In this document: one piece after another, positions 48,111-48,273 of the stretch
Layout of the letters: each line of letters begins with the position of its first letter
Position numbering within the stretch: position 1 is the first letter of the stretch
DNA from: an uncultured Chloroflexia bacterium
GTDB taxonomy: Bacteria; Chloroflexota; Dehalococcoidia; DSTF01; WHTK01
Direction of reading: 5' to 3'
Assembly: GCA_963732945.1 (NCBI GenBank)
Contig: CAVTBL010000003.1
Location: 467,084-531,083, forward strand
DNA: 64,000 nt
The notes under the pieces: generated by a model
Told to the model about the DNA's origin: nothing
Databases searched by the model: none
The model's input: the letters and a program-made list of their open reading frames with translations, nothing else
Translations under genes and position numbers: made by a program

Positions 48111-48273
48111 CAGGCACAAACAAGCAAAGTACAAACAAGCAAAGAGCCCGACGTTGCCTTAACGCGGGCCGTACAGCGGGGAGGAGACCGAGCAGAAGGG
48201 CTGCCTTTGCCCTTTGCCCTTTGCCCTTTGCCCTTTGCCCTTTGCCCTTTGCCCTTTGCCCTTTGCCCTTTGA
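48111..48273. repeat. (ACAAACAAGCAAAG)x2 followed by (CCTTTGC)x9-10 heptamer array
   Basis: 48116-48144 holds two 14-mers. 48204-48266 holds nine perfect CCTTTGC units plus a partial tenth. The two blocks are partly complementary (GCAAAG/CTTTGC). Confidence 0.95.

Follow-up and report, generated by a model that had tools for sequence, protein, structure and literature searches.

A perfect CCTTTGC heptamer array opposite a duplicated A-rich block, one of a family of repeat-armed intergenic hairpins in an uncultured Chloroflexota bacterium

Why should the short gap between two convergent genes carry a long, perfect heptamer array on one side and a duplicated block with complementary cores on the other? 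To address this question, we analyzed a stretch of 64,000 nucleotides (hereafter the window) from an uncultured Chloroflexia bacterium (assembly GCA_963732945.1, contig CAVTBL010000003.1, positions 467,084 to 531,083 of the forward strand), in which the gap at 48109-48275 separates a luciferase-like flavin monooxygenase (LLM) gene on the + strand from a nitroreductase gene on the - strand. An earlier reading of the letters and open reading frames (ORFs) of the window (the sequence-only reading) had likened this arrangement to the CATAGG loci nearby and had argued from it for selection on structure or periodicity rather than on sequence. Results revealed that the element is real and non-random and that it belongs to a lineage-specific family, being a variant of a known phenomenon and not a new category. 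The family behaves broadly as that reading had supposed, with structure prevailing over sequence, while the conspicuous CCTTTGC array itself is mostly unpaired excess.

Anatomy and folding of the CCTTTGC element

The element makes up the whole 167-nt intergenic gap. Its convergent setting, proposed by the sequence-only reading, was borne out by Pfam matches for the LLM gene (46906-48108, +; Bac_luciferase, E=1.4e-44; stop TGA at 48106-48108) and for the nitroreductase gene (48276-48869, or to 48917 in a longer variant, -; Nitroreductase, E=2.8e-23; stop at 48276-48278). Reading from the LLM stop, a 7-nt linker, GTCAGGC (48109-48115), is followed by a left arm of two copies of ACAAACAAGCAAAG with a T between them (48116-48144), a GC-rich spacer of 59 nt (48145-48203), and a right arm of perfect (CCTTTGC)x9.9 (48204-48272; (GCAAAGG)n on the - strand), after which AGC leads directly into CTA, the nitroreductase stop codon read on the - strand. 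The duplicated block, the spacer length, and the nine perfect heptamers with a partial tenth were therefore found as previously described, except that the block begins 7 nt beyond the TGA instead of right after it and that 3 nt, instead of 2 nt, separate the array from the convergent stop. Tandem Repeats Finder resolved the left arm with a period of 15 nt, 1.9 copies, and 100% matches (ACAAACAAGCAAAGT) and the right arm with a period of 7 nt, 9.9 copies, and 100% matches (score 138). The left arm is A-rich on the + strand (A18, T1) and reads on the - strand as the U-rich tail CUUUGCUUGUUUGUACUUUGCUUGUUUGU, and the right arm (A0 T30 G10 C29) is C/U-rich and free of A on the + strand. Within the spacer lies a central GC-rich stem-loop, GCCCGACGTT GCCTT AACGCGGGC (48146-48169), with a folding energy of -13.6 (+) or -14.0 (-) kcal/mol on its own, which was also found in the full-length minimum free energy (MFE) and centroid structures of both strands; the remainder, CGTACAGCGGGGAGGAGACCGAGCAGAAGGGCTG (48170-48203), is G-rich on the + strand and matches only itself within the window. 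A chance origin of the array is excluded, because 62 consecutive lag-7 matches have P ~1e-34 at the intergenic match rate of 0.277.

The complementarity of the two sides, on which the sequence-only reading had laid weight, held for the GCAAAG cores, which recur against every heptamer register, but Watson-Crick pairing is limited to these cores, and the inverted repeats between block and array extend over no more than 12 nt (83%) and 9 nt (89%). The duplex of block and array reached -21.8 kcal/mol on the + strand, a value matched by 14 of 1000 shuffled blocks and by 362 of 2000 random genomic 38-mers, and -35.2 kcal/mol on the - strand, where the corresponding counts were 4 of 1000 and 19 of 2000 (P ~0.004-0.01); the duplex on the - strand is the stronger because A-C mismatches turn into G.U pairs there. 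A similar split was observed when the complete locus was folded. The 176 nt of 48105-48280 gave -59.3 kcal/mol (z -1.5) on the + strand and -73.8 kcal/mol (z -2.6; 0 of 200 shuffles) on the - strand, and the 167 nt of 48109-48275 gave z scores of -0.7 and -2.0, respectively, or -2.2 with DNA parameters. Folding of the complete locus relative to shuffled controls was thus stronger on the - strand (z -2.0 to -2.6) than on the + strand (z -0.7 to -1.5). According to the partition function, the partners of the block are heptamer units 2-5, numbered from the nitroreductase side, and units 6-10 are partnerless with respect to the block, so that about 4 of the 10 units stand opposite something and six are in excess. 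Considering this weak fold together with the six unpaired heptamers, a recent expansion by slippage accounts for the long perfect array better than selection for pairing does.

Read on the - strand, the element runs from (GCAAAGG)x9.9 through 33 nt and the stem-loop to CUUUGCUUGUUUGUACUUUGCUUGUUUGU, and the stem-loop is followed directly by CUUUGCUUGUUUGUACUUUG, with 8 U among the first 12 nt. A simple terminator scan flagged 48150-48136 on this strand, and in its predicted layout 48109-48275 resembles an intrinsic terminator serving the nitroreductase gene. On the + strand, the A-rich block and the stem-loop are followed by UACAGCGGGGAGG and, 33 nt on, by the 69-nt C/U-rich tract.

Several long spurious ORFs cross the element, namely 47428-48711 (-), 48054-48584 (+), and 48029-48334 (+). 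The possibility that the heptamers encode a repeat peptide of PLPFALC type was discarded, as the ORFs that cross the array start within the LLM gene but out of its frame, and the collinear relative L001 (see below) has no CCTTTGC array. No Rfam match to the element was obtained at the gathering threshold, and at E<=1 the sole match within 47900-48500 was a chance one outside the element. Upstream of the LLM gene, a promoter-like site, TTGACC-18-CATAAT, was observed at 46815-46844.

A family of repeat-armed hairpins in the window

To place the element in its genomic context, the intergenic regions of the window were compared, with gene contexts taken from rough gene calls based on GC content at third codon positions and from Pfam checks. 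At least nine further intergenic hairpins with tandem-repeat arms of 6- to 8-nt units were found, which share a common plan: repeats rich in purine/A form the first arm, repeats of the complementary unit, rich in pyrimidine/T, form the second, and the GC-rich spacer between them is unique to each element. The resemblance to the CATAGG loci proposed earlier was thus confirmed, and extended to several units. Members of the family lie in three convergent gaps, five same-strand gaps (from stop codon to the next ribosome-binding site [RBS]), and one divergent gap, and they typically occupy the entire stop-to-stop or stop-to-RBS interval. Of the nine further hairpins, eight are placed between a stop codon and the following gene, the exception being 10677-10812 in a divergent 5' region. 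Their units follow the theme RCAWAG(G)/(C)CTWTGY, and CCTTTGC is one substitution and one extra C away from CCTATG(C).

Five family members fold far beyond their shuffles, with z scores of -3.5 to -9.3. The strongest fold was that of 45180-45279 in a convergent gap, where (CATAGG)x8.3, a 21-nt spacer, and a degenerate (TCTATG)x4.5 reach an MFE of -58.2 kcal/mol (z -9.3 on the + strand). GCATAGx4/CTATGCx4 arms at 16105-16172 lie between two - strand genes, with the stop codon of the upstream gene falling within an arm (z -5.3/-3.9), and ATAGGCx3.7/CTATGCx4.2 arms at 57151-57262 lie between two + strand genes (z -5.7/-5.8). In the divergent gap, at 10677-10812, the series GCGTAG GCATAG ACATAA GCATAG is separated by a 78-nt spacer from (TCTATG)x3. 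Heptamer arms of AAGCTTC type and CTTGNAG type enclose a 109-nt spacer at 18973-19153 (z -3.5 on both strands), adjoining both the RBS and the GTG start codon of the - strand gene located downstream, and AGCTYCAx4 and CTTGARG-type x4 arms, again of the AAGCTTC type, begin at a stop codon at 37679-37823. At 63190-63290, an A-rich arm, a GC hairpin (GGGCCCGCCTTTCGACGGACCC), and a T-rich arm of ~8-nt units (TTTGCTCG TTTGCTGG and so on, with TTTGCTSG octamers at 63250) adjoin the stop of a - strand gene at 63291. The convergent gap at 13747-13829 holds a G-rich arm (GCAGGCAAGGTAGGGCAG), a spacer, and TATGCCTATG plus (TCTTTG)x4 (GACAAA type, at 13795), and its fold was not significant against shuffles (z -0.5/-1.2). 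Finally, Tandem Repeats Finder detected a lone array, (TTGCTCGT)x3.5, at 46767-46796, 3' of a small hairpin (GGGCCGTTCGGCCC).

Similarity among the elements of the window is restricted to the arms, while the spacers are unique. Arm segments are common to 18973 and 37679 (25 nt at 92%, the variant units following one another in the same sequence) and to 46767 and 63250 (19 nt, exact), which hints at copying between loci rather than at independent slippage. Periodicity, which the sequence-only reading had offered beside structure as a target of selection, found little in its favor: global autocorrelation of intergenic DNA, a measure contaminated by the crude gene calls, was weak in the window at lags 6 and 7 (with a weak signal at lags 6 and 12) and absent in relatives. 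As a separate observation, the long perfect array adjoins the stop of the gene that reads its purine-rich strand at 13795-13829, 45180-45229, and 48204-48272 and at 1962-2017 of the metagenome contig L005 (read as AAGACA, CAUAGG, GCAAAGG, and GGACUAG, respectively), with the AGCTGAA array of L001 as an exception.

All nine of the window elements that were measured carry the A/purine-rich arm 5' and the T/pyrimidine-rich arm 3'. Since the arms are inverted repeats, this polarity reads alike on both strands, as would the T-first alternative. The reverse order occurs in one less regular element at 40795-40890 (2817-2914 in L001), which consists of ~8-nt TTGC-containing units between L-aspartate oxidase-like and QRPTase-like genes and which, unlike the other elements, is alignable and conserved between the window and L001; with this element counted, the polarity is 9 of 10 (one-sided binomial, ~0.01). 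Only with the A-5'/T-3' polarity does a U-rich arm follow the stem whichever strand is transcribed, as a bidirectional intrinsic terminator would require. The two big convergent loci owe their marked strand asymmetry to C-to-T decay of the shorter arm, which raises the U content of the strand that has this arm 3' of the stem.

As a control, genomes of 185,579 species were scanned for (GCATAG)3 (GCATAGGCATAGGCATAG), yielding at least 116 arrays in many phyla (L028-L143). Among the matches listed, an inverted partner, weak ones counted, lay within 150 nt of only 4 of 116 arrays, versus all GCATAG loci of the window, indicating that the inverted architecture belongs to the lineage and not to the microsatellite. 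The listed arrays ranged from 3 to 69 units and were scattered over highly varied bacteria and archaea, among them Streptomyces, Pseudomonas, Bradyrhizobium, Bacteroidales, Micrarchaeota, and others (for instance, L126 at 1288-1701, L119 at 2919-3091, and L076 at 2481-2612).

Orthologous sites in relatives

At a DNA identity of 86-95% (~90%), the relative L001 runs collinear with the window, including the nitroreductase gene (197 aa counted from ATG; 11261-11854 in L001), and the BLAST alignment stops exactly at the elements. At the CCTTTGC locus, L001 has a 57-nt gap with (AGCTGAA)x4.6; a plain hairpin, GAAGGGGCG..CGCCCCTTC, occupies the 45180 site, and the counterpart of the 57151 element is a GC palindrome without mismatch, GCGTAGGGGCGCAGC-atg-GCTGCGCCCCTACGC. 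The 37679 site (232-301 in L001) is a recognizable ortholog with the same heptamer family and a spacer of 14 nt versus 81 nt.

The LLM protein has homologs, annotated as LLM class oxidoreductase, in metagenome-assembled genomes of Dehalococcoidia/Chloroflexota and in soil metagenomes. In relatives whose LLM is 84-87% identical, the next gene is a same-strand gene of 116-118 aa, and the 67-109-nt gap before it holds a hairpin that starts from the stop codon. Its arms read GGCAGAC.GGCAAAC/GTTTGCC.GTCTGC in L002, L003, and L144, GCAAAnn/nnTTTGC in L004, and (GGGACAA)4/(TTGTCCC)2+ in L145 (-51.7 kcal/mol), and L146 has CCCCNNNx4 plus a GC hairpin. Two metagenome contigs carry a GC hairpin with a lone (CTAGTCC)x8 adjoining the convergent stop (L005, 85% identity) and GCATAC/GTATGC arms (L009, 73% identity). 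In distant orthologs (65-78%), the next gene mostly abuts or closely follows the LLM stop. The gaps of L006, L007, L010-L012, and L016 contain other sequence or repeats, including a shared CCCCAGAGGGGACCC-type motif, and no repeat-armed hairpin of this family was seen in them. The other repeat families observed 3' of the LLM ortholog in distant Chloroflexota contigs (L011 at ~2740-2940, L012 at ~1386-1590, L016 at ~4190-4390, and L007 at ~2197-2400) include this motif and also tandem copies of ~30-110-nt units.

The hairpin at the LLM 3' position is therefore a trait of one clade, in which the position persists and the unit, the copy number, and the repeat nature do not. Since the hairpins that relatives bear at the orthologous site are built from other units, sequence is less lasting than position and than structure, the latter in line with the sequence-only reading; against a complete indifference to sequence stand the theme shared by the units and the 25- and 19-nt arm segments common to different loci.

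The speed of turnover can be seen in L002 and L003, whose LLM proteins are identical: 2 of 1197 nt differ in the LLM gene and 7 of 88 nt in the element, against a locus mean of 1.7%, and the changes include one from CTTTGC to CTATGC. Exact repeat counts taken from assemblies of this kind need caution, because 93 gap openings over 21 kb between these two suggest indel errors. An assembly artefact as the source of the arrays is unlikely, since comparable arrays are present in assemblies of independent origin (JGI, ENA, and Logan).

Gene content around the locus also differs among relatives. Most of them (L002, L004, and L144-L146, at ~11200-12600) have one to four extra genes between the LLM and nitroreductase genes, namely the 116-118-aa ORF and genes for 2'-5' RNA ligase-like, SnoaL-like, and acyl-CoA dehydrogenase proteins. 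The convergent LLM/nitroreductase junction is thus derived, as the window and L001 lost genes that most relatives kept. On the other side of the LLM gene, L001 (8852-9874) and L004 carry a ~1-kb GerE/LuxR-type regulator gene between a Rieske oxygenase gene and the LLM gene, which the window lacks at 46625-46905; the window junction consists of the hairpin GGGCCGTTCGGCCC and the (TTGCTCGT)x3.5 array, just upstream of the LLM promoter-like site.

Candidate explanations and known systems

The explanation that we favor, and which we regard as evenly balanced between right and wrong, is that the element serves as a terminator-like or exonuclease-barrier hairpin for the 3' end of the nitroreductase mRNA and, with less clarity, for that of the LLM mRNA, and that its flanking tracts are slippage-made repeats. 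Replication slippage would lengthen the short tandem-repeat arms of a terminator-like hairpin, and the ten-copy perfect CCTTTGC array would be a recent one-sided expansion whose six unpaired heptamers are probably an excess without a function of their own. In the nitroreductase RNA, the GC stem-loop and the U-rich tail would act together as an intrinsic terminator or as an exonuclease barrier, and the tail may in addition pair, via G.U, with four upstream heptamers. In operon contexts, the related hairpins may cause partial termination or stabilize the upstream mRNA, as has been proposed for repetitive extragenic palindromic (REP) elements and for the hairpins of cyanobacterial short tandemly repeated repetitive (STRR) sequences. 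Slippage as the generator of the arms is in keeping with reports that loops of >=4 nt escape or are poorly handled by mismatch repair (PMC4060949) and that heptamers are the commonest unit of long simple sequence repeats (SSRs) in prokaryotes (Mrazek 2007, as cited in PMC4679880).

In favor of this explanation are the anatomy of the element, the better pairing of its - strand, the recurrence and the polarity of the family, the hairpins at orthologous sites, the hypervariability, the outcome of the (GCATAG)3 control, and the cyanobacterial precedent described below. Other results weigh against it. The U-rich tail is broken up by G/C, with the 8 U in its first 12 nt noted above, and the stem-loop of the + strand has no adjoining U-tract (UACAGCGGGGAGG). 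Once the array is deleted, the 95 nt that are left on the - strand fold like their shuffles (z +0.17), and the central hairpin is absent from the MFE structure of this fragment, which uses other pairing. Apart from 13747, the CCTTTGC locus is the weakest folder of the family (z ~-2 versus -5 to -9 at the CATAGG loci). Across 12 cases of known strand, the transcribed strand was the better folder by G.U pairing in 6, so that this test gives no specific evidence for selection at the RNA level over the DNA level. A strong terminator in the same-strand contexts would silence the downstream gene, and the role would have to be partial there, and the hairpin-type element at 10677-10812 lies in a divergent 5' region. 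Lastly, identical hexamers at five loci and the shared 19-25-nt segments are left unexplained by independent slippage in situ alone.

The neutral outcome of the strand test also speaks for the elements as neutral by-products, i.e., functionless microsatellites of unconstrained intergenic DNA in which slippage and intrastrand template switching within quasi-palindromes generate the complementarity by mutation. Perfect one-sided arrays (10 units versus ~4 paired here, 8.3 versus 4.5 at 45180), a very rapid turnover with unlike units between close relatives, partnerless arrays such as (CTAGTCC)x8 in L005, (TTGTTCC)x4 in L145, and the window array at 46767, and the poor repair of loops of >=4 nt (PMC4060949) all accord with neutrality. 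A symmetric mutational process should not, however, produce a polarity bias of 9 of 9, some hairpin is retained at orthologous sites despite replaced sequence, and the elements exactly fill stop-to-stop or stop-to-RBS gaps, which makes a purely neutral origin rather doubtful to us. The shared sequence, for its part, could result from a dispersed family resembling REP elements and bacterial interspersed mosaic elements (BIMEs), in which arm copies are spread by an enzyme (of the REP-associated tyrosine transposase [RAYT] type or another) or by recombination, into or in place of resident terminator hairpins. Such a family would account for GCATAG-type units at five loci in 64 kb, for the segments common to 18973/37679 (25 nt, 92%) and 46767/63250 (19 nt, exact), and for three orthologous intergenic regions wholly replaced relative to L001 at ~90% identity, two of which are plain hairpins there; the extragenic siting with variable linkers is that of the BIMEs of Escherichia coli. 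Yet the spacers are unique, no terminal inverted repeat with target duplication was seen in the window, neither a transposase nor a RAYT was found among the 14 window ORFs scanned, the units differ among loci and among close relatives, and convergent slippage of a favored unit can also yield similar arms, so that we consider this origin unlikely. A miniature inverted-repeat transposable element or transposon proper was rejected, as the spacers match only themselves, the likeness is confined to the arms, and no transposase occurs among the ORFs tested. Also unlikely, and distinctly so, is a composite scheme of lineage-specific REP-like spread, in which arm families (GCATAG, AAGCTTC, and TTTGCTSG/CCTTTGC) would overwrite resident terminator hairpins, through a putative enzyme or through hairpin-templated repair, a pattern that the differences from L001 at the three orthologous sites would fit; the arms could at the same time offer periodic binding sites that govern how efficiently transcripts terminate.

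Binding could also be the entire function, with repeats of 6-8 nt holding an oligomeric protein on RNA or single-stranded DNA, for instance cold-shock proteins at about one per heptamer or Rho on the 69-nt (CCUUUGC)n of the LLM transcript. C/U-rich, G-poor tracts are typical of Rho utilization (rut) sites, and (CCUUUGC)x9.9, composed of 43% C, 43% U, 14% G, and 0% A, is rut-like and remains for the most part without pairing on the + strand. The units share a common core, RCAWAG/CTWTGY, and there is a precedent in CspB, which binds heptamer direct repeats with a preference for T-rich ones (reviewed in PMC4679880). A sequence-specific binder is disfavored because the units at orthologous sites are unrelated (TTGTCCC, CTAGTCC, AGCTGAA, and GCATAC); in addition, the CATAGG arrays are not C-rich on their unpaired strand, and no candidate protein was identified, leaving the binding platform very unlikely. 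A phase-variation contingency locus, in which heptamer copy number would switch a flanking gene, has in its favor that long perfect SSRs are prone to hypermutation, as would be expected of this array. Its position tells against this: the array lies 3' of both genes, outside ORFs and far from a promoter (the LLM promoter-like site is at 46815-46844), and it can shift neither a reading frame nor a promoter spacer. A contingency SSR was rejected on these grounds, and we regard switching as extremely improbable.

Among known systems, the CCTTTGC element is nearest to the STRR heptamers of filamentous cyanobacteria, yet it is not a member of them. Both consist of tandem 7-bp units in non-coding DNA, at many loci per genome, in several unit families, and as intercistronic hairpins. 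The host here is a chloroflexotan and not a cyanobacterium, CCTTTGC is not known as an STRR unit, and the period is 6, 7, or 8 nt instead of being fixed. To our knowledge, paired arms around a GC-rich core with a fixed A-to-T polarity have not been described as a rule for STRR sequences. Between hupS and hupL, 7-bp STRR repeats form hairpins for which an effect on transcript stability was proposed, their function being still unassigned (PMC2670836), and in Nostoc 7120, TTGTCAG and CTGAC-type arrays occur within one intergenic region (PMC2408588). The long prokaryotic SSRs with 5-11-nt units (Mrazek et al. 2007; Huang and Mrazek 2014) are likewise intergenic, without a link to phase variation, and most commonly heptameric, and an origin by slippage was proposed for them (PMC4060949; PMC4679880). 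Those surveys cover direct arrays, and inverted array pairing as seen here is absent from 112 of the 116 GCATAG arrays listed. For the TAACTGA heptamer direct repeats of marine Beggiatoaceae, which form abundant intergenic arrays of 2-6 copies, a post-transcriptional role was proposed; these differ in having one conserved unit, located just upstream of start codons, almost never inverted (one case), and without a hairpin (PMC4679880).

Similar comparisons apply to hairpins without microsatellite arms. Bidirectional intrinsic terminators between convergent genes consist of an A-rich tract, a GC stem-loop, and a U-rich tract, with the two tracts mutually complementary. The predicted structure here has the same A-rich/GC stem/U-rich order directly after the stops and complementary tracts, but the tracts are long, G/C-interrupted tandem repeats instead of homopolymer-like runs, and a U-rich tract adjoins the stem on only one strand at 48109-48275. 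REP elements and BIMEs of enterobacteria and the REPINs of Pseudomonas are abundant inverted palindromic units at 3' ends or between cistrons that stabilize upstream mRNA. They resemble the present family in forming extragenic inverted pairs with variable linkers at 3'-end or intercistronic sites; unlike them, the family has no single conserved unit of 20-35 nt, its arms are locus-specific microsatellites, and no RAYT was found among the window ORFs scanned.

If the 3'-end hairpin explanation is true, this lineage makes and remakes such hairpins from slippage-prone repeats, and their strength could drift or be tuned per locus. The STRR/long-SSR phenomenon would then extend from cyanobacteria to uncultured Chloroflexota, with paired arms and a fixed A-to-T polarity as two added regularities. 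The repeat arrays are also natural strain markers (variable-number tandem repeats) in metagenomes, and they are likely to trouble assembly and gene callers, as with the spurious ORFs at 47428-48711 (-) and 48054-48584 (+). Elsewhere in the window, a possible small ORF of 25 codons (MSTNSQSAGPGFACDHMRGFDRVSR) lies at 10566-10643 with AAGGAGGG before it, upstream of 10677-10812 in the divergent region. A bacterial signal recognition particle RNA of the large type (189.6 bits) was detected at 22845-23107 (-), and three tRNA genes were located at 25733-25805, 25846-25927, and 33077-33165 (+).

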